Source: Sporopachydermia quercuum (lineage: Eukaryota). From it: DNA of 64,000 nucleotides. The stretch is from positions 770,470 to 834,469 of the forward strand of contig BCGN01000007.1 in assembly GCA_001599295.1 (NCBI GenBank). The letters are read 5' to 3'. Positions 18,289 to 43,632 of the stretch are shown here, piece after piece. The translations under genes were made by a program, and so were the position numbers. The notes under the pieces are model-generated. The model saw only the letters and a program-made list of their open reading frames with translations. It was not told where the DNA came from and searched no databases. Each line of letters starts with the position of its first letter. Positions within the stretch are counted from its first letter, which is position 1.

Positions 18289-18588
18289 TCAGTAACTATA
18301 GCATATTTTTACCCTGTTTCCTCGTTAGCAGTTAATTGCGTTCTGTTCCCAGAGAATATAAANACATTGGATCATGTTATTATTAAACCTGTCTAGTTAC
18401 CGTTTGAATTGTTCAACTACAGTACATGTGCATTAGAAAAATATAAATACCGAGAACACAGACTTATCAACTACTCTATTGATATTTAAACGTATATATC
18501 ACTCAACCAATCAAAAATATGATAATAGAGTCAAAGGACCAATTCGATAACAACAACCCTACACTATTTCTTGCAAGAGGATTTACCT

Positions 18589-19893
18589 ATGTCAACTGAT
18601 AAAAACAGTAGCATTTTGATCATTGGTGCAGGCACCTTTGGTTTATCATCTGCTTTGCATTTAGCAAGAGATGGTTATACTAACATTACCTGCTTTGACA
18701 AATATCCAGTGCCTTCTCCAATCTCTGCTGGTAACGACAGCAACAAGATGGTAGATTATGAATACTATTCACCTGGCGAGAAAATTCCTGCAACTGATAG
18801 AATAAGAATGGAGGCCAAGGATCTATGGGGATCTGATCCTGTTTTCAAACCGTACTACCATCCAGTTGGATTCATTTTTGCTGCTTGTTCTGACGAAGTG
18901 TTGAATAGTAGAGAGAGGGCAAGGAATATTGTTTCGGCTAAGGGAACCAAATATGAATATTTGAATACTCAAGAAGGGTTCAAGAAGCATCTACCTGTGT
19001 TAAGCGGACCTTTATCTGGCTGGAAGGGATATTTGATGAATGATGATGATGGATGGTTGCATGCTAGAGACTCTCTGATATCTGCGTATAAAGAGTGTTT
19101 AAAGTTTGGTGTTAAATTTGTTTTCGGAGAAAATGAAGGAGAAATTGAAAAATTAGAAAAGGCCGGCAGCAAAGTTGTTGGAATAGTTTCAAAGTCTGGT
19201 ATTTTATACAAAGGAGACAAAGTAGTAGTATGCGCAGGAGCTAATGCTGTCAAAATCTTGGATTTCAAGCTTCAGCTACAAGCCAAGGCTTTCACTGTCG
19301 CCCATGTTCAATTGACAAAGGAAGAAGCGGAAACATTCAAAGATCAGCCTGTTTTATTCAACGTTGAAAGAGGTTTCTTCTTTGAACCCGATGAGAATAT
19401 TGAATTGAAGATCTGTAACGAGTTTCCTGGTTATACTAATCTTGACGAAAATGGAGATTCCATCCCATTGTTTACCGATGAGATCCCATTAGAGGCAGCG
19501 AATGCTATCAGAGATTTACTGAGAGAGACAGTTCCCGAATACGCCGATAGACCTTTTGTTAAGACAAGAAGCTGCTGGTGCACTGATTCACCTGATCGTG
19601 AGCTCATTTTATGCGAGCATCCTGAATATACAAATTTGGTGCTGGCCTCGGGTGACTCGGGTATGGGTTTCATGTTGATGCCAGTTATTGGAAAGTATGT
19701 CACCAAGCTTGTTAAAGGAGGCGAAGCGGAATTCACCGAAGAAGAAAGAAATGTCTGGAAATGGAGGCCAGAAACTTCCTCTAGCAGAGATAACGTTCAA
19801 AAGAGATTTGGAGGTAAAGGAGTTGTTACTGATATTAGAAGCATCAAAGAATGGGTGTCTGCTTCAAACCCTGAACCCCATTCTATCTTCTAA
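18589..19893 (+). CDS. Fructosyl-amino-acid oxidase (amadoriase, FAOD/FAOX; MSOX family flavoprotein)
   Basis: ATG 18589. GAGTFGLS dinucleotide fold, PVPSPISAGNDSNK, GWLHARD, GFFFEP, KICNEFPG, CWCTDSPD (flavinylation Cys motif), WKWRPET and RFGG. Closely resembles yeast fructosyl-amine oxidases as recalled. Confidence 0.88.
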   Translation: MSTDKNSSILIIGAGTFGLSSALHLARDGYTNITCFDKYPVPSPISAGNDSNKMVDYEYYSPGEKIPATDRIRMEAKDLWGSDPVFKPYYHPVGFIFAACSDEVLNSRERARNIVSAKGTKYEYLNTQEGFKKHLPVLSGPLSGWKGYLMNDDDGWLHARDSLISAYKECLKFGVKFVFGENEGEIEKLEKAGSKVVGIVSKSGILYKGDKVVVCAGANAVKILDFKLQLQAKAFTVAHVQLTKEEAETFKDQPVLFNVERGFFFEPDENIELKICNEFPGYTNLDENGDSIPLFTDEIPLEAANAIRDLLRETVPEYADRPFVKTRSCWCTDSPDRELILCEHPEYTNLVLASGDSGMGFMLMPVIGKYVTKLVKGGEAEFTEEERNVWKWRPETSSSRDNVQKRFGGKGVVTDIRSIKEWVSASNPEPHSIF

Positions 19894-20953: not shown

Positions 20954-23219
20954 TTAATTGCTGCCCCAATCAGCCAACAGACGATCTTGAATATGTCTTG
21001 TTTCCCATCCACAACTCTCTTTTACTCTTTTCAGAAGCCTTATAATCGTGCTCTGCTTCACCTTACTGTCAACCAACTGACCAGCTACTACTGTTAGTAA
21101 AATAATCTAAGTACAAATAATCTTCTATCAACCGTCATATCATTTCCTATTACTCTAAAAATACTTACCAGCATGAAGAAAATGAATGGAAAGAAGAGCA
21201 GGAGATTCCTCTTCACAACATAAGCTTATTCCTATTATTTTATCACATTCACTAGATAGTGATTGTTTCAACTGTTTACAGTATTGTAAAACATTCAATC
21301 CTCTTGGAACTGGCTTTTTCATCATTATCATTATCTTACAGGTATAGAAACATTGCATTGCTACTCCAGCTTCTGCAGGATGATAATAATAATGCACCAG
21401 CCCATGCTCATCTTCACCAGCCCATAAGGGTTCAAACTTTTGACTAACTTTTGACCTCCAAGCTTCAAGGTAATTCAACAACTCATCAGCTCGTGAATTC
21501 ATTTCTTCGTATTCATTATTATGCTCTTGAGAACAGTAATTAGTAACAAGTCCCCATATATATATGATATAGTTAGCGGCATCTCCTACACTCCATGGTG
21601 GCTCATTCATCCAATTAGAAACATCTACTTTCCATAAACTAGGATCAAATGCTAATGTATTACCTAATAACATAGATTTAGCAACTTCTTGTCTAGCAAA
21701 ACTCCAGAAAGCAGTTCTCATTGCTCCTTGTGCTTCATTGCTTATTCCTAACGTTATTGCTTGAGACATGGCACCTTTCAAGTGGCATTGCCATTCGAAA
21801 TCTGCTGGCTCAAGCATTTCGTATGCTGATAATACAACGGTAGCTATAAATGCTCGGTGCGATGATAACAGATCTGTTTTCGCTAAGGAAGTTCTAACTT
21901 GTTTTAATGTATCATTATAATACTTGATAGCAATGTTATAATCAGAATTAGATATCAACGATAACTGTTTTGCAGATATCGCCAAAAGAGATTTCAAGAT
22001 AGTTTGGTCAAAAAAAGCCATTCGAGTCACTTCTTTAGTATAATGTTTATGATCATCAAAGAGATCAAACCAAGGTCCAATACGCTCTTCAAAGTTCTGA
22101 ATTAGAAGGAGTTCATCGTATGATATTGGAATATTTAACCCATTGGACAATGAAAATTTCTGTCGTATAAGAGGTAACTTGATATTGTTATTAGGTCTTT
22201 CCAATAGATTTGATATAGCTAATCTGGACAAAGGTGAAGGATGATCTAGCTCTTGCAAAGCGGGTATTTCGAAAGGTATATCAAGATCAGGATGAGATAT
22301 TGGAATATCGTGGTTCTCATCAGGAGATGTATTCGTCAAGGATACAGCATGATCTGATGACCAATGAGTCTGTATAGATGTGCTTGATGTACTGTTGGTG
22401 GGACTGGGTGTAGATGAACCATTGGTATTAGCATTGTTATTGCTGGTAGTACTATTAGCAGTATTGGATGAGGAAAGCTCAGCTGGGCTAACTAATGGAC
22501 TGTTCAGTTCACTCGGTAATAATGTGCTATCACGATTAAGCTGATTTTCATGCCGTGATAGTCTTGTTAATTCATTTGTTATACCATCAGCGTCAATTAC
22601 CTCAAGCTCTACTATACTTGAAGGTGGTCTAGGAATGACACTGGCGGTAAGAACACCCGTAGTAGTGACAGAAGCAGTAGAAGATTTGGAAATAGGCTTA
22701 TGATCTTCCTTTAGCTTTATATTATGAACTTCATCATTCTTATTAATATTGCTTTCTCCCCTGATGCTCGCATTAGAATCTCTGACTTTATCTTTATCGC
22801 CCTCTTTGGGCTTTTCCTTATCATTATCATTTTCTTTATTCTTATCCCTGTTCTTATTCCTACTATTCTCTTTCTCTTTACCAATGCTATGAGACATGTG
22901 CCTGAAAAAGAAATCACTAGGGCGATATTGACATCTCCTGTTTGATTTAGAGCAATTTCCACATTTTGGCTTCAATTCATCACATTTCACATGACGCTGT
23001 TTACAGGTTATGCTAGCGAAATGTTAATAATGGTCATAGAAGTATATACACATCCTAGGGATCGTAGTCTTCTTACTCAGTCAAAATAGGTACTTACCAT
23101 CCTGTTCTCACACGCGTTGTACTTAATCTCTTCATCACTGGGACTCTAGTGCTTGTAGTATTGATACTACTCAAGGCGGAAATGCTATTAGTAGCGTTTC
23201 CATTATGTATACTAGTCAT
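20954..23219 (-). CDS. Zn(II)2Cys6 transcription factor (3 exons)
   Basis: Exons 23219-23098, 23012-21169 and 21084-20954. Introns are GTAAGT...ATTAAC..TAG (23097-23013) and GTAAGT...TACTAAC..TAG (21168-21085). The spliced protein gives [33 protein letters not shown], a fungal-specific TF domain (WFDLFD, AFWSFARQEV) and C-terminal HAAGQLV...GWET...LADWGSN*. Confidence 0.9.
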
Positions 23220-26850: not shown

Positions 26851-28019
26851 TTATTGGGGTCCCTTAATAACAGTTTTCATACCTCTTCCTTCTTTGACAG
26901 CATCAAAAGCTTCTTGAGCNTTATCAAAGTCAACGATATCGCTAACCAAGCATTTAACATTGATAATACCAGCTTCAACCAAAGAAATTGCCTTTTCAAA
27001 ATCTCCTTTGTTGTATCTAAAACATCCTTTGAAATCAATTTCTCTAATGCAGATACTAGCCACAGGAAGTTCTGCAGTATCTTTACCCATACCAGTTTGA
27101 ATGAAAACACCTCTGGGTCTCAAAGCATTTAAACCAACTTGCATACAATATTGAGCACCTGTAGCTTCAAATGTGTACTCAAAACCTCTTTCTTCCTCTA
27201 AGCCGTATTTCTGGACTAGGAATTCAGCCATTTCGGCAGCAGATTTTCCTTTGATTGATTTCTCAGTTAGAACACCGAAGTTCTTTCTAGCGAATTCAAG
27301 TCTGTCATCATTGATATCAACAACAACAACGGTTTTAGCGGAGCAAGCATTCTTTGCAATAGCAGCAATCAACACACCAACAGTGCCAGCACCAAATACC
27401 AATACTGATGATCCGTGTCTGACACCTGCTTGCTTTTCAGCATGAACAGAAACAGCTAATGGTTCCATCAAAGCACCTTCCAACAAGGACATGTTTTCTG
27501 GTAATTTATATACAAAAGTTTCAGTGCTTTTGAAGTACTTTGTTAAAGTTCCATCGACAGGAGGAGCAGCTGCAAATCTCATCTCAGCACAGTGGTTGTA
27601 TTGACCACTCAAACATTGTGCGCATTTGAAACAAGGAACACCAGGTTCTACGCATACATGATCCCCAATTTTGAATTTTGTTACATCAGAGCCGACATCA
27701 ACAACGATTGCGGATGATTCATGTCCCAGTATTAGAGGCTTTTTCACAATGAAACTCCCAATCGAACCATGCTGGTAGAAATGGACATCGCTACCGCAGA
27801 TACCTGTGTACTTAATTTCTAATAAAACATCTTTTCCGTTAGTGATATTTGGGACAGGGCGATCTTCATAAGACAAATCTTCGATCTTTTGAAGAACAAA
27901 AGAATGGTTCTATCAAATTGCACAATGTTAGTATACAGATATATTGGAATGCAGCTAATCTAGAAAAGGATTTCCTTTGAAACCATTTAAAATCATACCT
28001 GGGAAGCAGTTGGTGACAT
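26851..28019 (-). CDS. Zn-dependent NAD(H) polyol dehydrogenase (sorbitol/xylitol dehydrogenase family, MDR), 2 exons
   Basis: Exon 1 is 28019-27999 (MSPTASQ), the intron 27998-27910 (GTATGA...TACTAAC...TAG), and exon 2 starts at 27909 (NHSFVLQKIEDLSYE). Motifs: GICGSDVH, GHES, structural-Zn CFKCAQC...C, EPLAVSVH, GAGTVG, VVDIND (NAD type), GCFRY. Confidence 0.92.
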
Positions 28020-28274: not shown

Positions 28275-31270
28275 ATTGTGGGGAAATTGTGTGGAGTACC
28301 AAGTCTTGAAAAGTCATTAACGAATTTTCATATTTTTATTTGTCATTTTCCTCGTATCAATTACCTGGTTTAGACATACTTACGTTGATACTCGACAACG
28401 CTGCCAAAAGCGTGTTTTTCAGAATCATAAATTTCCCCTGTTTTTCTTGATTTGGAGTTGATGTTTAGAATCCGAAAACCGTTTCACTAAAATATATACC
28501 TAAACTTAAAGTTTAGGTTTTATATTATGAAATTAGTACATGAAATTTCCGGATTTTTTTCTCGTAATACATACTTTAATAAGTAACTCCATCCTTTCTC
28601 CAGATTCTCCATCTCTTCTCTACTTCATTACAAGAAAATAAAAGTTTTCTCATCGTACTCACTATCTGAATTCAAGGGTTCCCCATCTCTTTGAACTGAA
28701 ACAATTGGAACACAAAGTTTTNCCCCCACAATTTCTATTGTTCATATCAGTCGTTTCAATTACCTTCTTCGTCGGGTTTTCTTCTTCGTCCAGTTTTACG
28801 TACCCCAGATTCAGATTTAGGAAGATATTTCTGGTTCAACTTCCGAGTCTTAACTCTATCTCCTCGCCTTCAGAATTGTGGGTTGGTGGCTATTTTACTT
28901 CGGAGTTCTGTTATATTTGTGGAAACTTAAATCTCGTGTTTGCCTCAGGACATAAAATAGACTATTGTTGGTAGAAGCGTGACAATCAGTGAAGAAAAGG
29001 AAACGCGAAGATGCTGAATCAACTGTCAATTACTTATTCTGATATTATTCAACTAGTACTCAATATTTACCAACCTCAAGGTTTATCTTGGTGCTCATTT
29101 CTTTTCAATGAAGTGCATTCTATGCGTTTCCTTCAAACACACCATATCCAATATAATTAGAACTTCCCATTCTACTTTAAGTATAATCTATCTAAAGTGT
29201 ATTGAGTTTATTCAAACTATCTATGTGCACTAAAAAAACAAATAAACATCAACCAAAACACATACATTCATTTCTCATTCAATATCTGTATATTCATCCT
29301 TAAAGCTAATTGGCTTCTTCAATCTCCTTTGCAAGAATCTCACGAGTAAGACCATCATATTTAACAAAGGTAGCAATTGCATCTTTAATTCTGAAAGTTG
29401 CAATTTCATTAGCAGCAATAGCTTTCTCAAGCTTGGTATCATCATCCATATAAGTTTGCTTTGGTGGAGCGTCCTTAACATCAACTTTAGCTGGAAGGGC
29501 AGGCCTGTAATCAGCAGGAGCAGGAGTGTTGATGAGTTTTTCTAAACATGGGATAGGGATGGTCATACCGTCAATACCACTGAGACCTTCAGTTACTTTA
29601 ACACTAATCATAGCGGCAGCAATGTTTTCACACTTGATACCATATGCTCTGTAATAGTTATGTAAATCTCTAGTTAAGGCCCAGCCATAGTTATCTTCAA
29701 GATTATCGTACTCCTTCAATAAGGATAAATCAATGTTTGCTGCTAATTCATCAACATAAGTAGAAATAGCATGACAACCAGCTTCAGCAGCGGCAATTCC
29801 TTGAGGAACTGAATGAACCATGGTACCAAGAGTCTTAATTCCCTTAGTCTTGAGGATTTGAGCAGCCTTTAAACCAGGATAAGTAGAAGGAACTTTGATA
29901 ATGACCTTGTCAGTGGGGACATCAAGATTGTTATAAGCCTTAATATAAGCTTCGGCAGCAGCAACAGTCTTTTCAGTATCATACGCAAAACCAGGATAAG
30001 TTTGAGTTAATGAGTGTCCCTTAACAACCTTCAACATATTCNTACCGAGGATAGCTGAGATGTAATTGATAACGGCATCAACAAAACCATCTTTACCATC
30101 TTTCTCGATTGAGTGGCCAAATTGCTTAGCATATTGGATAGCTTGCTTAGCTAAAGTAGGATCTTTGTTTAACATAAACCAAATGTGAAATTGGTTAGAG
30201 GTAGCATTATCAAAGTATCCAGCTGGCTTAATAGCTAAAGCACCCTCAGGCCACATGGTATCAACACTGATAGTGGTGTGTTCGGCAATAGCGTCGAGTA
30301 AGGTGATAGTCATTTTGAAAGAATATTGAATGGCTGCTAGTTCACAAGTAGTGGTACTGGGACGTGTAGTGAGCGGTAAATGAAGTGGTGTTTGTTTTTA
30401 ATTAACTACGTTATGTAATAAAGCCAAGAAATGAAAATATAGAGGAAATATGAATGAAAAACTGGGATCGAAGTGTTTCTTATAGTAGCTATCTATGGTT
30501 TCCAGATTGAACTTCTCTGTGCGGAGAAATCACCAGATTTGGTTACCTTTCCTTAAGATTAGAAGTGAGAAAATCAATAATAAGTACTCTATCTAAAGCT
30601 TGATTGAAAGAATGAAGATAAAATTCTTCAATTAAGCTTCAACAGAATACTTTAAAATATTCAATAAGGGATAGACGGGCTCCTGAAAAATTGATCAGTA
30701 CCAAGTCGTACCATGTTGCCTGAATGGGAATGAAATACGATGTCAAATCTCCAGATTCCCCACAATTCGGAAAGATAGCCAAAGTGGGTACTACGAGTTA
30801 TCCGAGTGATTGCTCTTTAAAGGAATATGAATACGAGTTATGCGAACAACTCTTTTACTGGCAAGTGAAACTGGAACTTAATCTTATCACTATTGCATCC
30901 TTCTGCGGGGAAATTTCTTTTTANTACGTTATGATAATCGTGTTTCTATTATTGCTTTACTTTGTTCTTGTTTAGTAAAAATCCTTTCGCTAATGACTGC
31001 GAAAACAGTCAGAGAAACTTCAAAACTTAACTTTTCTCATGCTATACTTAACCCTGGAATAAGACACAATTACGTACACTAATATCCATTTCTTGGCTTG
31101 ATGTTGAAACAACCACATTTAATTTCATATTCTCCCTAAAAGCAATATTGAATATTCAAAACAACTCAAACAGTTCCAATTAAAATAAAACTGTTCTATA
31201 TTTTTATTTTTCTTCAATAATTTCAGGAATTCATCTCACAGGGTATTCAATAAAAATTTCCCCACATTTA
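28275..31270. promoter_or_regulatory. Cluster of Mig1/CreA-type glucose-repression sites (AT-box + SYGGRG) upstream of dehydrogenase, aldolase and porter
   Basis: attgtgggg 28275-28283, ccccacaatt 28724, ctccagatt ~28598 and ~30749, ccccacaatt 30758, gcgggg 30905, ccccacattt 31260. Confidence 0.55.
29306..30313 (-). CDS. Transaldolase/fructose-6-phosphate-aldolase-fold class I aldolase with FSA-type active site and no phosphate-binding residues
   Basis: 335 aa. VDT (D18), ATSNQ (N40), AYDTEKTV, IIKVPSTYPG (Schiff-base K140), GIKTLGT, QGIAAAEAG and LSGIDGMTI match the transaldolase family. Q104, Y186, E189, A234 and I236 differ from true transaldolases. Confidence 0.88.
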   Translation of the reverse strand: MTITLLDAIAEHTTISVDTMWPEGALAIKPAGYFDNATSNQFHIWFMLNKDPTLAKQAIQYAKQFGHSIEKDGKDGFVDAVINYISAILGXNMLKVVKGHSLTQTYPGFAYDTEKTVAAAEAYIKAYNNLDVPTDKVIIKVPSTYPGLKAAQILKTKGIKTLGTMVHSVPQGIAAAEAGCHAISTYVDELAANIDLSLLKEYDNLEDNYGWALTRDLHNYYRAYGIKCENIAAAMISVKVTEGLSGIDGMTIPIPCLEKLINTPAPADYRPALPAKVDVKDAPPKQTYMDDDTKLEKAIAANEIATFRIKDAIATFVKYDGLTREILAKEIEEAN

Positions 31271-31501
31271 ACTTTTACTTAACCTTAAACCTTAAAATTT
31301 TAAAAACATCATCACAAAACTATAAAAACGAGACTTGATCCACCAAATAAATAATTTACCTCTCCCAACATTCCTTTTCATCTATTGCTTAATCTTTATA
31401 ATCAAGCAAGGAAGAGTGAGAGTAATAACAAAAACAACACATTAATACTCAGTTTAAACTAGAGAATTTAGTGGAGACTGATAACCAACTCTCTACTCAT
31501 T

Positions 31502-33088
31502 ATGGCGGACCGAAAATATATTGGAGGTTCGGGCCAAAAGCTCAATTTCTACTTAACATTTGCAACATGTACTGTGCTTGCATTCTATGGTTATGACCAA
31601 GGTGTCTTTGGTGGTGTTATTATTGGAGATAGCTTTCTCAAACAATTTGGCTACCCTAATGAGGATGTCATTAGTGAGTTGACCTCAGTTTATAATCTTG
31701 GTTGTTTTGCTGGTGCTGTTGCTTGTATGTTCGTTGGAGACTGGTTAGGAAGACCACGTACTCTTATTACTGGTACCTCCTGGATTCTGGTTGGTGCTAT
31801 TATTCAATCAGCTTCTTATTCACAAGCACAAATGTACGTTGGCAGAGTTGTTGCTGGTGTTGGTACTGGTATGAATACTTCAACAGCTGGTATTTTCCAG
31901 AGCGAAACCGCAAAATTCAGCTCTCGTGGTCAGTTGGTTATTCTTCAAATGGCTATGTGTATTGCTGGTTTCAGTCTTTCCAATTGGTTGACTTTCGGAT
32001 TTTCTTACGTCAGCGGTCCAGCTTCCTGGAGGTTCCCATTAGCATTTCAAGTCGTCTTCTGTTTCATGATTTACGCTATTTGCCCATTTTTACCTGATTC
32101 TCCAAGATTATTGGTTCGTAAGGGTAAGACAGACGAGGCTTTGAATGTACTTTCAAAACTTGCTGGAAAAGATGTTCCAAAGGAGGATGAAGAAGTTCAA
32201 AATACTTATAAGAATATCATTGCTGTTCATGAATTAGAAGAAGAAAACAAGGTGTCTTGGATGGACTTGCTACGTGGTAGAGGACCAGTTGGTTCAATGA
32301 GAAGAGTGGTTCTTGGTATGGGAATGCAAGCTATGAATCAGTTAAGTGGTATCAATATTACATCATACTATTTTGCTTGGGTCTTAATTAATGCTGTTAA
32401 CACGTCAGAAGAACTATCAAGAATTCTATCCTGTGCTGGATCAGTTGTTTATTTATGTTCTTCTTTATGTTCTTACTGGACTATTGAAAGATTTGGTAGA
32501 CGTAGAATGATGATGATCTCTTCTGCTGGTATATGCTCTTGTTTCATTGGTATTACTGTCTGTTTATCCTTGATTGGTAAGAATGGGGGAAGCAATGACC
32601 ATGGCCTTGGTGTTGGTGCTACATTCTTTTTCTTCTTATTCTTTGCATTATTTGGTATTGGTTGTCTTGGTGTCCCATGGTTATATCCCTCCGAAATTAA
32701 CAGTTTGGAGTTAAGAACAAAAGGTGCTGCTTTGGCTACAGCTACCAACTGGATTACTAATTACATGGTTGTAAGAGTCACGCCTCCAGGTATTGCTAAC
32801 CTTGGATGGAAATTTTGGATTGTGTGGATTTCTATCAGTGCTTCCTTCATCGTTTTCACTTACTGTTTCTATCCTGAAACTGCTGGTAGAACTCTTGAAG
32901 ATATCGATACCTTGTTCAACAGAGATTTACCTGTTTTCGTTTTCAGGGAAAAACTCGCCGTCCAATTAAAGAGACCTCAAGAGTTCATTGATCAAGAGAA
33001 TGAAAATAATCACTACACCGAAACTGACGAAAAAGACGTGTCAGTTGTCCATGAGGAGGAAACATCTACAAATTCAAAAAGCGTTTAA
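31502..33088 (+). CDS. Sugar-porter MFS, Stl1-like (polyol/sugar:H+ symporter clade)
   Basis: GYDQGVFGG, DWLGRPR, GRVVAGVG.G, WRFPLAFQ, PDSPR, QAMNQLSGIN, ERFGRR, PWLYPSEI..L..R.KG, ATNWITN and YPETAGRTLE. Confidence 0.9.
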   Translation: MADRKYIGGSGQKLNFYLTFATCTVLAFYGYDQGVFGGVIIGDSFLKQFGYPNEDVISELTSVYNLGCFAGAVACMFVGDWLGRPRTLITGTSWILVGAIIQSASYSQAQMYVGRVVAGVGTGMNTSTAGIFQSETAKFSSRGQLVILQMAMCIAGFSLSNWLTFGFSYVSGPASWRFPLAFQVVFCFMIYAICPFLPDSPRLLVRKGKTDEALNVLSKLAGKDVPKEDEEVQNTYKNIIAVHELEEENKVSWMDLLRGRGPVGSMRRVVLGMGMQAMNQLSGINITSYYFAWVLINAVNTSEELSRILSCAGSVVYLCSSLCSYWTIERFGRRRMMMISSAGICSCFIGITVCLSLIGKNGGSNDHGLGVGATFFFFLFFALFGIGCLGVPWLYPSEINSLELRTKGAALATATNWITNYMVVRVTPPGIANLGWKFWIVWISISASFIVFTYCFYPETAGRTLEDIDTLFNRDLPVFVFREKLAVQLKRPQEFIDQENENNHYTETDEKDVSVVHEEETSTNSKSV

Positions 33089-34597: not shown

Positions 34598-36307
34598 CTA
34601 ATTCTTGTTTTTTTCTTCAACAAGCTCCTCAGCATCTTCGGCCCCTTCACTATCACTTTTGGTTGGTGCAATCTTTTCAACATCTCTCACGAAAACCTTT
34701 CGTTTGGTATTGTTACAGAAAAGTGTAACCCAGATATTTGGGTCTTCGTTCTTTTCTTCAAAAATCTGTTCAATATCTTCTAAACTGAAACCGATAGTTT
34801 CAGGGTAAACAAAGTAAACCCACACCAAGATGAATAAGAGAACAAAGACGTAGACCAAGTAATATTTCCAGCCAATCTTATCAATGGCAATAGAATTAAC
34901 AAAATTATTAAAAATGGCAAAGATAGAGTAACCGTTCAATGAAAAAGCAACACCTTTTGCTCTAAGATCAAATGAGAAAATTTCAACAGGATAAGAAGTT
35001 GACATTGGAGTGTAAGCAACATCATAGAAACCAAAGAAAACATATAGGAACGGGATAACAGCAGTAGCAGCTCCATTATTACCATGGATTTGGAATTGAG
35101 CAGTTAAGGCAGTGACTAAAACGAATGAAACAAGCATACCAAAAGTTGAAATGAGGAACAAAGGTCGTCTACCGAATCTGGAAATCGCCCAAGAACCAGC
35201 AAGAGCAAAGAAAATGTTCCATAATTGTAAACAGCCATTGATCAATGTTTGATCAGTGATATCAGTGATACCAATACTATTAAGCATATCAACCAAATAA
35301 TAAGAGATAATTGAATTACCGCAAATGGCTGTGAAGATACCTAGTGAATAGGCAATAACAGATCTATGAATATTAGCTTTGCTTTTGAATAAATCTTTCC
35401 ATGATGATGCATTCGTTTGTTCCATAGAAATACTTTCCTGTAATTCTTTCATTTCAACATCAATGAGGGCGTCATATCTTGGGTCACCACCACCATGGTG
35501 TTTCAGTAAGACGGCACGAGCTTTATCAATTTCACCTCTACCTACTAACCAACGAGGACTTTCAGGAACGAAAAAGAAAATTATCACAAGACCAATTCCT
35601 GGGAAAACGACTTGTAATAANGTTAATAGTCTCCAACTCCAGTTGCCAGTCATATTTCTAATTCCATATGTGATCCAGGCACCGAAGAATGATCCAATAT
35701 AGTAAAAACCTAAGAAAATGGAAGATAAGAAACTTCGGTGAGAAGGATAAGCATTTTCCGTGATTGCAACAACTGCCTCATTACCAGCAACAATACATAA
35801 ACCTTGTAGGATTCTGAAAGCAGTAAACATTCCAACATTTTGAGAAAAAGTTTGAATAATACCGAATACAATAAGTAAGGTACAGAATAAAATAGCAGTC
35901 CATCTTCTACCCAAATGATCACAACATGGTGGTCCAACGAACAAAGCAAGGAAACTACCAAATGCAGAAGCACCAATAATAAAACCTTTATATCCACCAG
36001 TTGGATTTCCAATGAAATCCATGAATGCTGTAAATGCTTGACAGTTGTTCAACAATGAATCAACATATCCATAAGCAGCGGCCAACATGCAAAGTCCTAA
36101 AATTCCAAAATTCAATTTGGCGAGATGAGGTAGCTTATACCATGGCTTAGTATCTAATGGAATAACTGCTGCAATAGCACTTCCAAGAGTCTTTTCGTAT
36201 TCCTTGTATTTTTGAAACTGTTTCTCGGTCAAATTTCCAGGAAATTCTCTTGAAGTTGAAGCACTTGTAGCTACTTCATAGACTTCAGCATTTACTTCCT
36301 CCTTCAT
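34598..36307 (-). CDS. Sugar-porter MFS, Lac12/cellodextrin-transporter-like (beta-glycoside permease)
   Basis: KPWYKLPHL.KLN, DHLGRR, E.AYP.HR, WSWR, PESPRWLV, GNSIISYYL, FGRRPLF, YTPM...YPVEI...LRAKG, IGWKYY and YPET.G.SLE. Divergent from a GH3 gene. Confidence 0.85.
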   Translation of the reverse strand: MKEEVNAEVYEVATSASTSREFPGNLTEKQFQKYKEYEKTLGSAIAAVIPLDTKPWYKLPHLAKLNFGILGLCMLAAAYGYVDSLLNNCQAFTAFMDFIGNPTGGYKGFIIGASAFGSFLALFVGPPCCDHLGRRWTAILFCTLLIVFGIIQTFSQNVGMFTAFRILQGLCIVAGNEAVVAITENAYPSHRSFLSSIFLGFYYIGSFFGAWITYGIRNMTGNWSWRLLXLLQVVFPGIGLVIIFFFVPESPRWLVGRGEIDKARAVLLKHHGGGDPRYDALIDVEMKELQESISMEQTNASSWKDLFKSKANIHRSVIAYSLGIFTAICGNSIISYYLVDMLNSIGITDITDQTLINGCLQLWNIFFALAGSWAISRFGRRPLFLISTFGMLVSFVLVTALTAQFQIHGNNGAATAVIPFLYVFFGFYDVAYTPMSTSYPVEIFSFDLRAKGVAFSLNGYSIFAIFNNFVNSIAIDKIGWKYYLVYVFVLLFILVWVYFVYPETIGFSLEDIEQIFEEKNEDPNIWVTLFCNNTKRKVFVRDVEKIAPTKSDSEGAEDAEELVEEKNKN

Positions 36308-38613
36308 TTTAGTAACCGTAATGTGTGATATATTAAAGCAACTCTCTTCAAAAAGCAGAGTAAATTAAAGATAGTTGATGTAGGAATGTAAGAAAGCCTT
36401 GATTAGTAAAGATATAAGCCGAACAATGAAATAAGTACCAACTCAGAGGAAGCAAATAAACAGGCTACCCGAGTATTTATATCTTGATGAGATTGACCAC
36501 TTGGGAGATGTTTAATGTCAGGTTTCAGAAATTATCTCTCGATATAAGTTTTCTAAACCTATCACTAGTTTGACTAATTAATGCTTTCCTCTTTATCAAA
36601 TGAACTGGTTTTGATTCTTTAGCAGGAAGTTTTACGTTATCTTTAAAAGCTGAATGGAAATCGTTCAAATCTCCAACATAGTTTCAGTAAGATAGTGAAT
36701 GATAAGATCTATCAATTCTGTAAATCAATCTTGGCCCAAAANAAACAACTGGTAATTATAACCAATTGAAGAAAACATTCAGATGACTTGAGGGAATCTT
36801 ACGAAAAGACTTAATCAAAAGAAAAGAAGATTCAACAATTTAAATCAAACATAAAGGAACTTTTCTAGTCGAGTTTTATAAAAGCAGTAAGGGAAAGAAG
36901 ACATTTTGTTAGTTGGATAGAAATCGGTTGATTAGATATAACCTTGAAAAAATAAGCTTCGCGTTTGGCGTAACTTTATTTAAATCGAATTTTGAACCCT
37001 ATTAAGGTTCAAGAGTCAAAAGTTACACAACAGCTCAATTGGGAAAGAGGTTTAACAATCTTTAATTGACAGTGCTATTTTCCTCTCCGTTTTCTCTTTT
37101 CCCGTTATTTAAAAGGGCAAGATAGATCAGAAGATGATTTAATACCGTAAATGCTAACTGGGGTATCAAAGCTTCCTTGTTATAGAGTTGAAATGTCACA
37201 TTGCTTCTAACGCCTTCCCGTATTTTTATCCTGTAATTCATTGTAATGGATAATGGAGACTCACATTGAGCTGACAGNTAATACATCTTTGATTTATAGT
37301 TTGTGAATAATTAAAGTTTAACTGAAAACTCTATATAGCACAGTAATTATCACTTAGGTTTCAGCCAAATAACCAAGACCCAGCAAACCGGAACTGATCC
37401 CAATTTGAAGTCTTGATCTCTTGCTCCACTGTTGTGCTAAAAGCTTATGTAGATATTTCTGCTACCAGGAAGGATTATAAGCTTTTGTAACCGTACTTCT
37501 TTCTATAATATATTTTTTGGAACATCAATCTCTGATAAGTTAACAGGATCGTAAAATAAAAGATGGACTANGAACTAGGAACCTGACGAAGAAATTAGTA
37601 AATCAAGTGATTAATCTTAGCTCGCAATTAAATGGAATAGTTCCAACTAAAAATACATAGGGTTTTATGTAAATCCATAAGAGGAAGGAGATAGGTAGCG
37701 ATTTGAAAATGTTACAGTTTCAACAATCTATCTATCAAATTCAAACTTAGAGTTTCTCCATTCTTATGAGTGTGCGTAGAGGTCTCCAACTCCCTGTTGT
37801 GACTGTATTTGAGCATGTCAGAACAATTTTTTCTCTCTGACAATAAACAAAAACTAGAAAACAACAGTTAAAAAAACATTTAAGGACGTAGAGAAGCAAT
37901 ATCATGTTTTATTCGCTAAAATCTTCCCCTTTCCTGGGAAAATTGTTAGTTTTACCATTTTAAAGGTGAGGTTCTCAAATTGTAGACTTTGAAAACCAAC
38001 NGTTAAGGTTTGGCTAATATTTCATATTAGGAAAGCCATTGGTCACTATTTTATGGCAACCGGAATAAAGTATCAACGGTTTTATGGTTAGTTCAAGCAT
38101 AGTTTTCGAATAGCTTATCTTAGCTGCCAGGCACAAGATAATAGATTGTAGAAGCACCGAACTAGGACAATCAAATATTTCCCTTTTCCTCAATTCTCAT
38201 CATTCGTTTTAAGCTTTCATCACTGCAGTAGATGGGTTTCTTTTTTTTTAGTAAATTTGGGGATCATTGCTTTCCTTAAATGTCTAAGAACTCCCCAAGT
38301 GGATATAGAAATAGACATATTACTTTGCCATGCTTGATGCCTATTGAAGTGGATTTGTATTGACTTACTTAGCTTCCTTCTAGTTAAAGGAGGGTCAAGG
38401 TTTTGGGTTCTTTTATTCACTGGGATTGTTTCTAACATTTTACTAAGACTTTTGGATTATATATAGTTGTCACTCAGACGCGGAACTATCTCTATCTCAT
38501 CCTTTGTCAGGTTTCATTCCGTTGTGAAATCCAAAGCTCAAATAGTATTGCGAATTAGTAGCGTTTACCAAATATCCTACAATATCAACCTACTAATAAA
38601 GAATCGGTGAAAA

Positions 38614-41112
38614 ATGGTCGAATTAACTCCAGAAGAAATTGTCAAGCAGTTGACACTTCAAGAGAAAATCCAATTGTCAGCTGGTAAAGATTGGTGGCAT
38701 ACCTACCCAGTCCCAAGACTTGGTGTTCCATCTATTAGATTATCTGATGGTCCTAATGGTGTCAGAGGCACTCAATTCTTTGATTCTGTGAGATCTGCTT
38801 GTTTTCCCTGTTCAACAAGTTTAGGCGCTTCTTTTGATAAAGAGTTCTCCTTTAAAGCCGGTGAATTGATGGCTAAAGAAGCCAAAGCAAAGGGTGTTCA
38901 CGTCATTCTTGGCCCTACTCTTAATATCGTCAGAAACCCTCTAGGGGGTAGAGGTTTTGAATGTTTCTCAGAAGACCCAACTCTTACCGGCATCCTTGGT
39001 GGAGAAATAATCAGAGGTATGCAAAAGCATGGAATTGCTGCCTGTGTAAAGCATTATATATGCAATGAAATTGAAAATCATAGATTATCATCAAACTCAA
39101 TTTTGACTGAAAGGGCTTTAAGAGAGGTTTATATTCGTGCTTTTGAAGTAGCTATCAAAATCGGTGATCCTAAAACTCTTATGACTTCCTACAACAAAAT
39201 GAATGGTATTCATTGCTCTCAAGATAAAAGATTAATCAATATAGCAAGAAAAGAATTAGGTTTTAATGGTGCCATTATGTCTGACTGGGGTGGAACTTTT
39301 TCTGTTGAACAAGCCTATGATGCTGGTCTTGACATAGAAATGCCAGGATCTCCCAGATTCAGAAAAGTTGATGTTGTAGAGCATTTATATTCATCTCATG
39401 AAACTAATGAAGAGTTGATTGAGGAAGCTGCTTTGAACGTTTTGAAGCTTGTTGAATATGCAAAGAAGAATTCTGGAGTACCTGAAGATGCCCCAGAGAC
39501 AACAGATAACAACACTCCTGAAACATCAGCTAAGTTACGAGAACTAACAGCCAGTGGAATTGTTTTACTAAAGAATGAGAATAATTTATTACCTTTCAGC
39601 AAGAAAGACAAATTGGCTATCATTGGACCAAATTCTAATTACATTACAACTTCGGGTGGTGGTTCTGCTGCGTTGAGACCTTATTATAATGTTACACCCA
39701 TTCAAGCTTTTACTGAGGTACTAGAGAACGCTCCTTTATCTCATAAAGGTTGTTATAATCATAAGAAAATCCCAGAAACTCTTTTAATCAATCCGGAAAC
39801 CGGCAAGCCTGGAGCTTCAATGAAAATCTTCTTAGAATCTCATTCTTCTGCTTCCAGAACGTTGGTTGACCAAAGAGTTCTTGACTCAACTCATTTTAGT
39901 ATGTATGATTACTATCATGAAAAGATATCTGATTTTAAGTTCTATGCTGATATTGAAGGCTATTTTGTACCAGAATCTACCGGTACATATGAATTTGGTA
40001 TTGGCAATTTTGGTGCTGCTAATTTGTTCATTAACAATGAAATGATTATTAAAAATGATGATAATGAAAATCCTTTCAGTGCCTTATTGACAGAAGATTA
40101 CCCCGAGAGACATGCTCAAGTAGATCTCGTGAAAGGTGAAAAATACTTGGTGAAAGTTGAATTTGCATCTGCTCAAACATTAGAGATACCACCTTCTAAA
40201 GAAGCTGGTGGTGGTGCTGTTAATTTTGGTTGTTTCCAAGTGGTTGATCCAATTGATATGATCAATGAAGCTTGTGATGTCGCCAAGAGTGCTGAGAAAG
40301 TTGTTCTTGTTATAGGATTGAATAAAGATTGGGAATCTGAGGGTTATGATAGAAAGGATATGAAATTACCTGGCTATACTGACAAACTTGTTGAAGAAGT
40401 ATTGAAAGCCAATAGCAATACCGTTATTGTTAACCAATCCGGTACTCCTGTTGAAATGCCATGGATTAAAGAAGCTCCTGCTGTTCTACAAACTTGGTTT
40501 GGGGGATTAGAAGGTAATAGAGCTATTACTGATGTCATATTTGGTGAAGTCAATCCTTCTGGTAAATTACCTGTGACATTTCCTCTTAAAACTGAAGATA
40601 ACGCCAGTTATCTTACGTTCCATACTGATGGAGGTAATGTTATTTATGGTGAAGATATTTTCGTTGGATATAAATATTTCGATGGTCATAAGAAAGAAGT
40701 GTTATTCCCGTTTGGCTATGGTTTGTCTTACAGTAGTTTTGCTGTTTCTAACTTGAAGATTGCTGATAAAGGAGAAACTGTCCATCTTACTGTTGACGTT
40801 GAAAACACTAGTGATGTTGATGGTGCTGAAGTTGTTCAAGTTTATATTTCTGCACCTGAAGTTGAAGATGTTCCTAGACCTGTTAAACAACTGGTTGATT
40901 TTAACAAGGTTGCTGTTAAGAGCAAGGAAAAAAAGGTAGTTACATTTGCTATTGATAAACAAGACTCTACAAAATATTGGGATGGTTGGACCAATTCCTG
41001 GTGTAGTCTTGAAGGGGAATACAAGCTATTGGTTGGAACTTCAAGTCAGGATCTTGAACTAGAAGCTGTTTTCAAACTGGACGAAACTTTGCGTTTTTAT
41101 AGCCCCAAGTAA
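38614..41112 (+). CDS. Intracellular GH3 beta-glucosidase with PA14-type insert and C-terminal FnIII-like domain
   Basis: SDGPNGVRG, RNPLGGRGFECFSEDP, CVKHY, MTSYNK, MSDWGG (nucleophile Asp), IVLLKN, WESEGYDR (acid/base Glu), PSGKLPVTFP, YGEDIFVGYKY and FPFGYGLSY. No signal peptide. Confidence 0.95.
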   Translation: MVELTPEEIVKQLTLQEKIQLSAGKDWWHTYPVPRLGVPSIRLSDGPNGVRGTQFFDSVRSACFPCSTSLGASFDKEFSFKAGELMAKEAKAKGVHVILGPTLNIVRNPLGGRGFECFSEDPTLTGILGGEIIRGMQKHGIAACVKHYICNEIENHRLSSNSILTERALREVYIRAFEVAIKIGDPKTLMTSYNKMNGIHCSQDKRLINIARKELGFNGAIMSDWGGTFSVEQAYDAGLDIEMPGSPRFRKVDVVEHLYSSHETNEELIEEAALNVLKLVEYAKKNSGVPEDAPETTDNNTPETSAKLRELTASGIVLLKNENNLLPFSKKDKLAIIGPNSNYITTSGGGSAALRPYYNVTPIQAFTEVLENAPLSHKGCYNHKKIPETLLINPETGKPGASMKIFLESHSSASRTLVDQRVLDSTHFSMYDYYHEKISDFKFYADIEGYFVPESTGTYEFGIGNFGAANLFINNEMIIKNDDNENPFSALLTEDYPERHAQVDLVKGEKYLVKVEFASAQTLEIPPSKEAGGGAVNFGCFQVVDPIDMINEACDVAKSAEKVVLVIGLNKDWESEGYDRKDMKLPGYTDKLVEEVLKANSNTVIVNQSGTPVEMPWIKEAPAVLQTWFGGLEGNRAITDVIFGEVNPSGKLPVTFPLKTEDNASYLTFHTDGGNVIYGEDIFVGYKYFDGHKKEVLFPFGYGLSYSSFAVSNLKIADKGETVHLTVDVENTSDVDGAEVVQVYISAPEVEDVPRPVKQLVDFNKVAVKSKEKKVVTFAIDKQDSTKYWDGWTNSWCSLEGEYKLLVGTSSQDLELEAVFKLDETLRFYSPK

Positions 41113-41722: not shown

Positions 41723-43632
41723 CTATAGGACACCAATCTCATAACCAAGCTCTGAATATCTTCTGCTCACTAACTCTTGCATACTCTCGCCATTTTTCCT
41801 GCATTCTCGACAAACATAAACAACTAAAATAATATTAGCACATTTACAATTATCAAAAATTCTTGAGGCCACTTTATCAAATTCTCTTCCATTGTTAACC
41901 AATTCTCCATCATCTTCTGAATTTCTTGCTCTTGAACTGAACACCGAGAAAGCCCAAAGCGGTTGGAGAGAAACAGCGGTCCAATAATGAATTTGCGACA
42001 TCAGGGATAAATATTGAATAGATAGCTTTTCAAATATTAGTTGATAATTATTTGGTTTAACAACCATACAAGTTTCTGCCATAGCAGCAATTGACCATAT
42101 TTTAGCGACTGTCAATCTAAATAAATAATTTTGATTGGCTCCAAAATCATTGTTAGCAGTCGTTTGCAGGTCATTCAAATCATCAGGAAGAAAAGAATCA
42201 TAATCAATCAGTTTACTCTTCATTCTATTGAAATAATTATCTCTCTCAGTAATTGACTCAAAATTAAAGCCATTTCTTTTGATTTCAAATTTTAATAATG
42301 CCAAATCATAAATACAGGAGAGAACTTGAACAGGACAGCCAACTACTTTCAACTGCTTGATTTGATCTTCTCCGTTTAGTTGGATATCCTTCTTACGACA
42401 ATATGGCTTTCTATATGAAGACGAAGAAACTGCCAATATAATATCTGTATAATAAATTTGTTGAGTGAAATAAATTATATGCGGAATATTATAGTTTTTA
42501 TCCAACCTTTGAGACGTCAGAACCATTAGCTTCATGAACGGATTGATGAAAATATTCAATGGACCTCTGAATAAACAGAATAGTAAGTTCATGTAAAGGA
42601 ATATAAGTAGCAGAAACAGCTTTGAAGATTTCTTTGGGTTAGGTGACCGGGTTGACCTAGGGCTTGAAGTAGGCGTAGTTTCTTTTCCACCATTTGAGCT
42701 AGAAACCAACAGCTCGTTAATAGGACTATTCGAGTCCTTTTTGCTTTTGGTACTTTCATTTCTGTCTTCGACATCTCTTGACTCTTGTTCTTCTTGCTCG
42801 TCTTCACCCTCATGTTCTTCTACTTCTAGTCTATCTAGAAAGGATATAGCTTTACTCATAATTAATGAAACTTCATTTTCAGATTCGACGTGGAAAAATT
42901 GGGATAAATCATCACCAAATATATCCAATATTTTGGAGTTCATTAGCTCAAATTTTTTGTTTGCTAGTTCCTTGTATTCTGATTGCCATTGATGATTGTA
43001 AATATGCACTGCTGACAAAGCAATACACCAATTATTAAGTAATTCTTCATCACATAGCTTCATTCCCAACTCGTACCACGCATTTGAAGGCTCATTATCA
43101 ATCACCTTGATGATTGAATTGTAGAAATAAGCTACCAACCCTTGATCTGTTTTTACTAGATCCGGCGAAACCGCATTGAAATCTGTAAACAAATCCTTAT
43201 CTCTTTGCTGAAGTATCGTATCAAAAATACCAACTTCATTCTGCTTCCTTAAAAAGAACCCTTCAAAGGACTCTTTCCGTCGTTTCCATGAATTACTCAG
43301 TCTTTTAGGAATCCCTCTATATCCAACTTTCAGCTCTCCTTTTTCACTGAAGCTAATGAATTGCTTTGGATTATTAGAATCAGTATCAAATACCAATCTT
43401 GTATCATAACCTTCACATTTTCTACCCGATGAAACACATTGAGAGCAAGCGGGCTTCACACCATCACATTTCTTCTTCCTGGAAAGTTGTACGTTAGGAG
43501 TCAGAAGACACCAGCTATGGTGGTAATCAGCTAAAACCACAATATACACTCAAATGATTTTATCACATGAGGAAACTAAAATAAAACATACCTGGCTCTA
43601 CATGTCCAACACCTTAATGATTTCCTGCCCAT
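41723..43632 (-). CDS. Zn(II)2Cys6 transcription factor (2 exons)
   Basis: Exon 1 is 43632-43592 and the intron 43591-43479 (GTATGT...CCTAAC...CAG). The spliced N-terminus MGRKSLRCWTCRARKKKCDGVKPACSQCVSSGRKCEGY has all six Cys. A divergent fungal TF domain follows (ALSAVH, YTDII, VGCP, QPLWA). Confidence 0.88.

Follow-up and report, generated by a model that had tools for sequence, protein, structure and literature searches.

Does a fungal gene that passes for a transaldolase encode an aldolase? The question is raised by a minus-strand gene (29306..30313, stop included) in a 64,000-nucleotide stretch of Sporopachydermia quercuum DNA (contig BCGN01000007.1; hereafter the window), which codes for a TAL_FSA protein of 335 aa with a classical transaldolase scaffold. 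A preliminary description, made by eye, saw in it a transaldolase that nature had rewired into an aldolase for unphosphorylated ketoses. The residues named there, the parallel with engineered enzyme variants and the expected mislabelling stand, whereas a singular rewiring, an adaptive serine at position 184 and high expression do not. With slightly better than even confidence, we regard the protein as a retro-aldolase, which splits free D-threo ketoses derived from imported polyols into dihydroxyacetone (DHA) and an aldehyde.

The reading frame is unbroken from ATG to stop, and its one X, at residue 91, corresponds to a single N at 30042. Two DNA assemblies (2016 and 2023) agree throughout the frame and differ only at 29232 and 29257, both 3' of the stop. 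The protein matches Pfam PF00923 (TAL_FSA) with 119.9 bits at a gathering score of 27 (E = 1.8e-34). An AlphaFold2 model (pTM 0.92, mean pLDDT 95.2) and Foldseek TM-scores of 0.82-0.90 with TalB, human TAL and yeast NQM1 confirm the long-form TIM-barrel transaldolase fold. The best sequence match in the PDB is yeast TAL1/NQM1 (3cq0), a protein of the same fold and length that aligns with residues 56-317 (E = 4.4e-26). A reading as a decaying pseudogene was rejected in view of the unbroken frame, the invariant catalytic set and a residue pattern that is consistent family-wide. Codon usage had been taken to indicate a highly expressed rather than a decaying gene; the second half of this claim holds, but high expression is no more than possible. 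Wright's Nc (38.0, the second lowest among 14 ORFs of the window) is close to that of the adjoining cluster genes (37.6-40.8). A peroxisomal transaldolase isozyme occurs in methylotrophic yeasts; such an assignment was rejected for the S. quercuum protein, which ends in ...EIEEAN and has no SKL-type PTS1 tripeptide.

The active site was compared with those of E. coli TalB and FsaA in a MAFFT alignment (sequences from NC_000913.3), and HMMER alignments against PDB chains gave matching residue equivalences; all equivalences proposed by eye are thereby borne out. Retained are the Schiff-base lysine K140 (TalB K132, FsaA K85), D18 (D17, D6), N40 (N35, N28) and T164 (T156, T109), as well as S184, which preserves the TalB state (S176; A129 in FsaA). 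Three further residues are of the FsaA type, namely Q104 (TalB E96, FsaA Q59), L162 (N154, L107) and Y186 (F178, Y131). Finally, the three phosphate ligands are replaced: E189 stands for TalB R181 and FsaA R134, A234 for S226 and S166, and I236 for R228 and K168. Altogether, the protein departs from TalB at 6 of 11 active-site residues. An acidic pair, Asp188-Glu189 (G180D and R181E with respect to TalB), occupies the former phosphate site, and A234 and I236 lend the acceptor pocket a partly hydrophobic character. The alignment with TalB and FsaA thus places Gln, Tyr and Glu, and not Glu, Phe and Arg, at the canonical positions. Yeast NQM1 differs in this respect from the S. quercuum protein, as five of its aligned positions show the canonical residues (Glu, Phe, Arg, Ser, Arg).

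Several of these exchanges have been made in the laboratory. According to the available text of PMC3962226, the TalB phosphate site consists of two arginines and one serine, the exchange R181E improves the affinity for D-glyceraldehyde, and TalB F178Y is a DHA-dependent aldolase. The likeness to engineered TalB, noted previously, is real: PDB titles name the variants F178Y/R181E (3kof), E96Q/F178Y (4rz6) and F178Y (3cwn), and Q104, Y186 and E189 are the same three substitutions at the same positions. The scaffold is shared as well (Foldseek TM 0.85-0.89 with 3kof and 4rz6), and in a phmmer ranking 3kof, 9qpk and 4rz6 outrank wild-type TalB and come directly after yeast NQM1. Unlike the engineered variants, the S. 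quercuum protein occurs in nature, shares only about 23% identity with TalB, is further altered at N154L, S226A, R228I and G180D, and is encoded in a conserved gene cluster; its aldolase activity is a prediction. The preliminary description had also set S184 beside the FSA variant A129S. This exchange does improve the use of DHA (PMC3962226, in the part available), but S184 is no new change and represents the ancestral TalB S176.

E. coli FsaA, a member of TAL_FSA subfamily 5, is the predicted model for the type of reaction, with release of free DHA. The Gln/Leu/Thr/Tyr set and the motif 'TLGT' are identical, letter for letter, in both proteins. FsaA differs in its length (220 aa versus 335 aa), in its phosphate site (R134, S166 and K168 versus E189, A234 and I236) and in Ala129 in place of Ser184; moreover, unlike FsaA, the S. 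quercuum protein groups with the long transaldolases in trees.

With classical transaldolases (EC 2.2.1.2) the protein shares, besides the Schiff-base lysine, the equivalents of Asp17, Asn35, Thr156 and Ser176, and differs by the replacement of Glu96, Asn154 and Phe178 and of the whole phosphate site (Arg181, Ser226, Arg228). The common scaffold with its lysine, Asp, Asn, Thr and Ser would suit an enzyme that is still a transferase and moves a dihydroxyacetone unit from a free ketose to a free aldose without liberating DHA, and the loss of the phosphate site fits unphosphorylated substrates equally well in that case. Yet the acid/base Glu and the Phe that shields the intermediate are replaced by the FsaA pair in 66/66 rows of the family described below (a count that follows from the definition of the group), and F178Y by itself turns TalB into an aldolase (PMC3962226, as far as available), so that we hold a transferase to be quite unlikely. 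An ordinary pentose-phosphate isozyme, either a transaldolase or an F6P aldolase that holds phosphate by other residues, is far less probable still. Automatic annotation as transaldolase and the TalB fold speak for it, but all three phosphate ligands are replaced, with the acidic Asp188-Glu189 at their site, and the protein scores below the cut-offs of both relevant NCBIfam models (TIGR00874 talAB, 113.2 bits at an equivalog cut-off of 396.2; TIGR00875 fsa_talC_mipB, 65.6 bits at 245.95). The only basic residues that are invariant or nearly so in an alignment of 15 sequences, K140, R222, K227 and R308, match no known phosphate ligand; that another basic residue of the pocket compensates for the loss has a small residual probability.

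The residue pattern is not peculiar to S. quercuum, and the notion of a singular natural rewiring has to be abandoned, as the gene belongs to a large fungal family. A residue table of 125 rows was compiled, comprising the S. quercuum protein and 124 relatives with lengths of 290-470 aa (43 rows outside this range were left out), in which a Gln/Leu/Tyr and a canonical Glu/Asn/Phe group were defined by these very residues and hence carry them in 66/66 and 40/40 rows, respectively. Among the Gln/Leu/Tyr rows, Arg or Lys occurs at position 189 in 0/66 and at position 236 in 2/66, and Glu or Asp is found at 189 in 48/66. The canonical rows have Arg at 189 in 40/40 and at 236 in 39/40, the remaining row being a gap. 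As judged from the alignment, absence of the phosphate site characterises the family and goes together with the presumed catalytic switch. The branch that separates the family, with 52 rows on one side and 24 rows including E. coli TalB on the other, received an SH-aLRT support of 99 and a FastTree support of 99, and the S. quercuum protein lies within nested supported sets of 5, 16 and 20 rows, every one of them Gln/Leu/Tyr. In the 15-sequence alignment, whose members are 29-73% identical to it, Q104, K140, L162, G163, T164, Y186 and A234 are invariant.

All nameable members of the family are fungal; they represent budding yeasts, filamentous ascomycetes and mushrooms (basidiomycetes) and include Ogataea philodendri (OGAPHI_004939), Saccharomycopsis crataegensis (DASC09_040930), Brettanomyces nanus (FOA43_004405) and Kuraishia capsulata (KUCA_T00004569001) as well as Debaryomyces, Aureobasidium, Armillaria and Colletotrichum. 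A metagenome scan, in which 152 relatives were confirmed and 80 retained, yielded no Gln/Leu/Tyr member with flanking sequence; the retained loci, 80/80 canonical transaldolases, served as controls and keep E/N/F/S/R where the positions are covered, with R181 kept in 75/80 and Trp in the other 5. Six long members (P0159 with 864 aa, P0431 with 964 aa and four more) were inspected for fusion partners, and Pfam shows TAL_FSA alone.

Some variation within the family bears on the substrate. Ser and Ala alternate at position 184, and a nested subclade of 5 rows carries Met/Leu/Phe in place of Gln/Leu/Tyr. The equivalent Ser/Ala position in FSA and TalB (A129 in FSA) governs the preference for DHA or hydroxyacetone (PMC3962226, available text). 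Together with the partly hydrophobic acceptor pocket, the alternation and the diversifying subclade would agree with a Schiff-base enzyme that acts on something else, such as deoxy-ketoses with hydroxyacetone as donor or a secondary-metabolite carbonyl, or even with a non-catalytic binding protein, the neighbourhood seen in Lipomycetaceae then being one lineage-specific use. A non-catalytic role is opposed by the invariance of the whole catalytic set in the yeast clade, and another substrate by the fact that both conserved neighbours are polyol-related; we therefore deem this explanation unlikely.

These neighbours flank the aldolase-type gene in the window. Upstream, a divergent gene on the plus strand (31502..33088) encodes an STL1-like MFS sugar/polyol transporter of 528 aa (Pfam Sugar_tr, 1.3e-92), which shares 67-73% identity with proteins from Lipomycetaceae and about 55% with proteins named 'Sugar transporter STL1'. 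The 1.19 kb between the two genes (30314..31501) presumably form their shared promoter. On the other side, the minus strand encodes a Zn-dependent dehydrogenase of the xylitol/sorbitol (polyol) family in two exons. Exon 1 (27999..28019) supplies the N-terminus MSPTASQ, which resembles that of the relatives P0015-P0018, an 89-nt intron (27910..27998) bears the signals GTATGA ... TACTAAC ... AG, and exon 2 (26851..27909) codes for 352/359 aa with the Pfam domains ADH_N and ADH_zinc_N. The best PDB match of the dehydrogenase is a xylitol dehydrogenase (7y9p, 5.5e-84), and cluster-linked paralogues from Lipomycetaceae are 57-61% identical. The two intergenic regions contain no notable Zn2Cys6-type CGG repeats, and a tRNA scan across the window found none. 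Nearby genes for another sugar transporter and a beta-glucosidase of family GH3 are catabolic.

The order transporter, aldolase-type gene, dehydrogenase is found in the window and in five named species of Lipomycetaceae, where adjacency was inferred from consecutive GenBank accessions, assigned to contigs that agree in length, rather than read from DNA. Three-gene sets occur in Dipodascopsis uninucleata (KAK9458417-19), Lipomyces starkeyi (ODQ69368-70; KAK9327294-96), L. kononenkoae (KAK9235392-94) and Limtongia smithiae (KAK9450514-16), and L. doorenjongii has three such sets. One L. starkeyi assembly departs from this scheme, the transporter accession (KAK9334431) not being consecutive with KAK9334785/86, and at a second D. 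uninucleata locus the adjacency extends to the transporter and the aldolase-type gene alone (KAK9455016/17). The conserved context of polyol transporter and polyol dehydrogenase independently supports the idea of a putative aldolase for unphosphorylated ketoses, and the three-gene unit suggests a so far undescribed fungal breakdown of unphosphorylated sugars.

From these features we infer the reaction type, its direction, the substrates and a coupling of the three genes. The protein would be a class I (Schiff-base) aldolase on a classical transaldolase scaffold, in which Lys140 forms an imine with a 2-ketose. Tyr186, Gln104 and Thr164 are placed as in E. coli FsaA and would allow the enamine to be protonated and free DHA to be released, whereas a transaldolase retains the enamine for transfer. 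Since the phosphate site is replaced by Asp188-Glu189, Ala234 and Ile236, the substrate probably carries no phosphate on its aldehyde half. The aldolase may take the middle place in a catabolic module of three genes: polyols would be imported by the STL1-like symporter and oxidised at C2 by the adjoining xylitol/sorbitol-dehydrogenase paralogue, giving a ketose of D-threo (3S,4R) configuration. The aldolase would cleave this ketose to DHA and glycolaldehyde or glyceraldehyde, or formaldehyde in the case of L-erythrulose. These products would then be passed to a dihydroxyacetone kinase and to aldehyde-handling enzymes encoded elsewhere. Xylitol/sorbitol dehydrogenases usually form D-xylulose, D-fructose and L-sorbose, all of 3S,4R configuration. 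The products of FSA and TalB F178Y are likewise 3S,4R (PMC3962226, available part).

The module might also run in the opposite sense, condensing DHA or hydroxyacetone with a reactive aldehyde to a ketose and onwards to a polyol, either for detoxification or to make a compatible solute. Aldol equilibria favour condensation, and the STL1-type carriers and polyols of yeasts are tied to osmotic physiology. FSA and TalB F178Y are also employed synthetically in this direction (PMC3962226, as above). Several features of the locus argue against it. An acidic residue follows the second Rossmann strand of the dehydrogenase ('VVVVDIND'), which points to NAD use and thus to the oxidative direction typical of catabolic polyol oxidation. 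The second sugar transporter and the GH3 enzyme nearby are catabolic, and the STL1-like transporter belongs to the sugar-porter family, to whose STL1 branch we assume the polyol transporters of Aspergillus niger to be related. Glycerol, mannitol, sorbitol and xylitol are taken up by A. niger transporters that were compared with fungal glycerol transporters of known function (PMC13323096, in the available text). On balance, we judge the condensing direction rather unlikely.

The favoured retro-aldolase reading has weaknesses of its own. Cleavage of D-xylulose or L-erythrulose would generate costly glycolaldehyde or formaldehyde, and the ordinary kinase routes for D-xylulose and D-fructose also count against it. 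Furthermore, the rule that Gln and Tyr make an aldolase rests on enzymes of bacteria and archaea and on mutants, and not on a fungal protein. In broader terms, the Gln/Leu/Tyr proteins may constitute a new, so far fungi-only family of DHA-releasing aldolases for free ketoses, which in Lipomycetaceae, together with the NAD-dependent polyol dehydrogenase and the STL1-like symporter, would provide a kinase-independent route from polyols to trioses; this we put forward tentatively, at somewhat less than an even chance. One option within such a route would be the conversion of erythritol via L-erythrulose to DHA and formaldehyde. Two papers refer to Nishimura et al. (2006) for the utilisation of erythritol by L. 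starkeyi, and one of them, in the part available, passes on the hypothesis that erythrulose phosphate is split into DHAP and formaldehyde. Nishimura et al. reportedly purified an erythritol dehydrogenase.

If the aldolase reading is true, fungi have evolved and kept the changes that TalB engineers introduced stepwise for unphosphorylated acceptors (F178Y, E96Q, R181E), and have gone beyond engineering in that the remaining phosphate ligands are gone as well. The family would then put the Glu/Phe versus Gln/Tyr rule, which divides transaldolases from aldolases, to a natural test, and would supply a panel of stable eukaryotic aldolases, using DHA (Ser184) or possibly hydroxyacetone (Ala184), for phosphate-free sugar synthesis. 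Polyol catabolism in fungi would gain a non-phosphorylative ketose-cleavage step.

In the full-text literature, with coverage of few subscription journals, neither a characterised fungal Gln/Tyr transaldolase-like protein nor this gene cluster was found. A survey of the transaldolase family (Samland et al. 2012) and a genome-mining study of DHA aldolases (ChemCatChem 2015) may bear on novelty. The suspicion that such proteins are labelled transaldolases proved justified, as sources do give relatives the name 'Transaldolase'. If the aldolase reading holds, this widespread label would have to be corrected, and metabolic models that count these proteins as pentose-phosphate-pathway isozymes would be wrong. 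For A. niger, a paper on sugar catabolism lists TalA and TalB as two predicted transaldolases (PMC6231085, in the available text). The ESM Atlas, queried with the homologue P0001, returned only clusters auto-named 'transaldolase', mostly from Ascomycota.

The aldolase-type gene is an uninterrupted open reading frame of 335 codons on the minus strand (window 29306..30313), in which one N at position 30042 yields the sole X of the protein (residue 91). This organism has two publicly filed DNA assemblies, possibly the source of the window DNA, which both cover the frame and show no difference inside it; no RNA run was found to contain the locus. The protein is assigned to the TAL_FSA family (Pfam, 119.9 bits), and it reaches neither the NCBI curated cut-off for transaldolase (113 versus 396 bits) nor that for fructose-6-phosphate aldolase (66 versus 246 bits). 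An AlphaFold2 model computed from a 15-sequence input (mean pLDDT 95.2) has TM-scores of 0.82-0.90 to yeast NQM1, human transaldolase and the transaldolase of E. coli (TalB), and the modelled scaffold is therefore that of a classical long transaldolase. Codon usage is moderately biased (Nc 38.0, the second lowest value among 14 window ORFs and not calibrated on highly expressed genes), and the neighbouring genes share this bias.

E. coli talB and fsaA (fructose-6-phosphate aldolase, FsaA) were taken from NC_000913.3 and aligned with the protein and twelve relatives. Five active-site residues of TalB are retained (D17, N35, K132, T156 and S176, corresponding to D18, N40, K140, T164 and S184), while six are changed (E96Q, N154L, F178Y, R181E, S226A and R228I). 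The substitutions E96Q, N154L and F178Y reproduce Q59, L107 and Y131 of FsaA, and the “TLGT” motif is letter-identical with FsaA. In contrast, the phosphate ligands, which FsaA keeps (R134, S166, K168), are gone (R181E, S226A, R228I). A phosphate-dependent isozyme appears highly improbable. The residue equivalences, originally read by eye, are borne out by this alignment and reproduced in HMMER alignments to PDB chains. The mutant background given in the preliminary description likewise agrees with the accessible text of the review PMC3962226, where TalB gains dihydroxyacetone (DHA)-dependent aldolase activity via F178Y, two Arg and one Ser constitute the phosphate site, R181E raises the affinity for D-glyceraldehyde, and A129S improves DHA use by FSA. 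The likeness of S184 to the latter variant is nothing new, since it is merely TalB Ser176 retained. Among PDB sequences, NQM1 (3cq0) ranks first, followed by three chains which by their titles are engineered TalB, namely 3kof (F178Y/R181E), 9qpk (E96Q/F178Y/R300E) and 4rz6 (E96Q/F178Y), all above wild-type TalB.

Judged by its sequence, the protein is a member of a family rather than an isolated oddity. A word-indexed search yielded 14 relatives, the closest of which (62-73% identity) are found in the Lipomycetaceae, i.e., Dipodascopsis uninucleata (two paralogues), Lipomyces species and Limtongia smithiae. Identity falls to 33-40% for relatives from Ogataea philodendri, Saccharomycopsis crataegensis, Brettanomyces nanus and Debaryomyces, and to 29% for one from Colletotrichum truncatum. 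When 1.84 billion representatives were searched exhaustively with HMMER, 1049 matches reached E <= 0.001, of which 14 also reached E <= 1e-30. The best 150 of the 1049 were aligned with the 14 word-search relatives (three ids overlap) and six cluster members, rows of 290-470 amino acids were retained (125 of 168; 43 fragments or long forms left out), and eleven active-site positions were read per row. At the positions of TalB E96, N154 and F178, 66 of the 125 rows thus drawn from the best matches and other relatives carry Gln/Leu/Tyr, 40 the canonical Glu/Asn/Phe and 19 other combinations. Within this set, Arg or Lys is present at position 189 in none of the 66 Gln/Leu/Tyr rows (41 Glu, 7 Asp) and at position 236 in two, as against Arg in 40/40 and 39/40 canonical rows, respectively, with one gap. 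The catalytic switch and the loss of the phosphate site thus go together almost perfectly in these rows. As a control, the family alignment was used to recover 80 metagenome loci, all of which were canonical, five with Trp at the R181 position.

One branch separates the Gln/Leu/Tyr rows, including a nested Met/Leu/Phe subclade, from the others (support 99, FastTree, 125 rows), and the same branch received an SH-aLRT of 99 (52 rows versus 24) when 76 rows, E. coli TalB among them, were analysed in a quick IQ-TREE run. All named members among ten representatives looked up are fungal (Kuraishia, Blastobotrys, Aureobasidium, Pseudovirgaria, Aspergillus nanangensis, Armillaria, Hohenbuehelia and Rhodofomes), and the family proteins are labelled “transaldolase” or “aldolase” in their sources. 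In the budding-yeast subclade Ser at the S226 position is absent from most rows, where Ala is usual, and kept in two. The nested subclade (database relatives P0160, P0177, P0213, P0233 and P0278; the one named member is from A. nanangensis) has Met/Leu/Phe at the Glu96/Asn154/Phe178 positions, hence neither Glu nor Gln/Tyr, and lacks the phosphate Arg residues too. Outside the fungal clade, six long-form relatives (P0230, P0286, P0236, P0269, P0183 and P0223) have Tyr in place of Phe178 together with a phosphate site that is intact (Arg, then Ser or Asn, then Arg; patterns ENYRSR, ELYRSR, ETYRSR, QIYRSR and QNYRNR), and could be natural long-form phosphate-dependent aldolases.

The gene context is evidence beyond the preliminary description. 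A Zn-dependent polyol dehydrogenase gene follows downstream, also on the minus strand, and was modelled as two exons (exon 1 28019..27999, MSPTASQ; exon 2 27909..26851) with an 89-nt intron bearing GTATGA ... TACTAAC ... AG signals. Its best solved relative is xylitol dehydrogenase 7y9p (5.5e-84); ketose reductase and human sorbitol dehydrogenase come next. Upstream and divergent is an STL1-like sugar/polyol transporter (31502..33088, plus). For all three proteins, the best matches in the databases appear, from the identical lengths of their contigs, to share Lipomycetaceae contigs. Adjacency is deduced from consecutive GenBank accessions, which place the aldolase-type gene between transporter and dehydrogenase: D. 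uninucleata KAK9458417/18/19; L. starkeyi ODQ69368/69/70 and KAK9327294/95/96; L. doorenjongii KAK9489585/84/83, KAK9427385/86/87 and KAK9349793/92/91; L. kononenkoae KAK9235392/93/94; and Limtongia smithiae KAK9450516/15/14. The aldolase-type gene and the dehydrogenase apparently also lie together on a 6908-bp contig (relatives P0006, P0020). Exceptions are one L. starkeyi assembly, where only these two are consecutive (KAK9334785/86; transporter KAK9334431), and a second D. uninucleata locus, where only transporter and aldolase-type gene are known neighbours (KAK9455016/17). The latter pair occurs twice in D. uninucleata, on different contigs (relatives P0001/P0290 and P0003/P0288/P0016), and the window protein is nearer to the copy without a known dehydrogenase neighbour (73% versus 65%). 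The window dehydrogenase is 57-61% identical to cluster-linked dehydrogenases versus about 47-51% to source-named D-xylulose reductases and 49% to the one other named Lipomyces match among those listed (L. tetrasporus). This difference suggests that the cluster contains a dedicated paralogue.

In the proposed mechanism, Lys140 would form a Schiff base with a 2-ketose, and the FsaA-like arrangement of Tyr186, Gln104 and Thr164 would allow the enamine to be protonated and free DHA to leave. Such a release would be the behaviour of an aldolase, not a transferase, and a transferase among free sugars seems quite unlikely. With Asp188-Glu189, Ala234 and Ile236 at the phosphate-binding place of TalB, the aldehyde partner would be expected to carry no charge. 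The neighbouring genes point to a possible pathway of polyol uptake, C2 oxidation by NAD and splitting of the ketose. We lean towards a catabolic aldolase acting on free ketoses; that the enzyme works in the condensing direction is rather unlikely. A. niger glycerol transporters are presumably relatives of STL1. According to the accessible part of PMC13323096, they carry glycerol, mannitol, sorbitol and xylitol.

D-xylulose, D-fructose and L-sorbose, typical products of sorbitol/xylitol dehydrogenases, are 3S,4R. The same stereochemistry is given for FSA and TalB F178Y in PMC3962226, as far as accessible. L-erythrulose from erythritol is a candidate fourth substrate. Erythritol utilisation enzymes of L. 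starkeyi are credited to Nishimura et al. 2006 in accessible passages of PMC10935855 and bioRxiv 10.64898/2026.07.28.741190, the latter also passing on the hypothesis that erythrulose phosphate is cleaved to DHAP and formaldehyde. A different class of substrate, or a different role, is unlikely.

The fold and the chemistry are already known. A full-text literature search, with most subscription journals outside its reach, returned no characterised fungal family member and no account of the cluster; the two A. niger TAL paralogues are counted as predicted transaldolases in the accessible text of a sugar-metabolism paper (PMC6231085). The searched literature does not describe the apparent combination, in which a long scaffold lacking the phosphate site carries FsaA-type catalysis, is conserved across fungi and forms part of a polyol cluster.

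A few kb beyond the dehydrogenase, a Zn2Cys6 transcription factor (21155-23023, minus) is a candidate cluster regulator, and an FAD-dependent oxidoreductase of the DAO family (18529-19893, plus) lies nearby. On the other side, a second sugar transporter (34598-36364, minus; Sugar_tr, 2.5e-76), a beta-glucosidase of family GH3 that also has PA14 and Fn3-like domains (38611-41112, plus) and a Zn2Cys6 transcription factor (41723-43549, minus) adjoin the cluster and look like a separate beta-glucoside/cellobiose utilisation unit. The window contains 58 isolated single N letters (about 1 per 1.1 kb; none between 38001 and 53564), which, at a guess, could mark masked heterozygous sites and a stretch of lost heterozygosity. 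A flavohaemoglobin-type ORF with globin, FAD and NAD binding domains (7639-8916, minus) and a large ABC transporter (1927-6411, plus) look ordinary.
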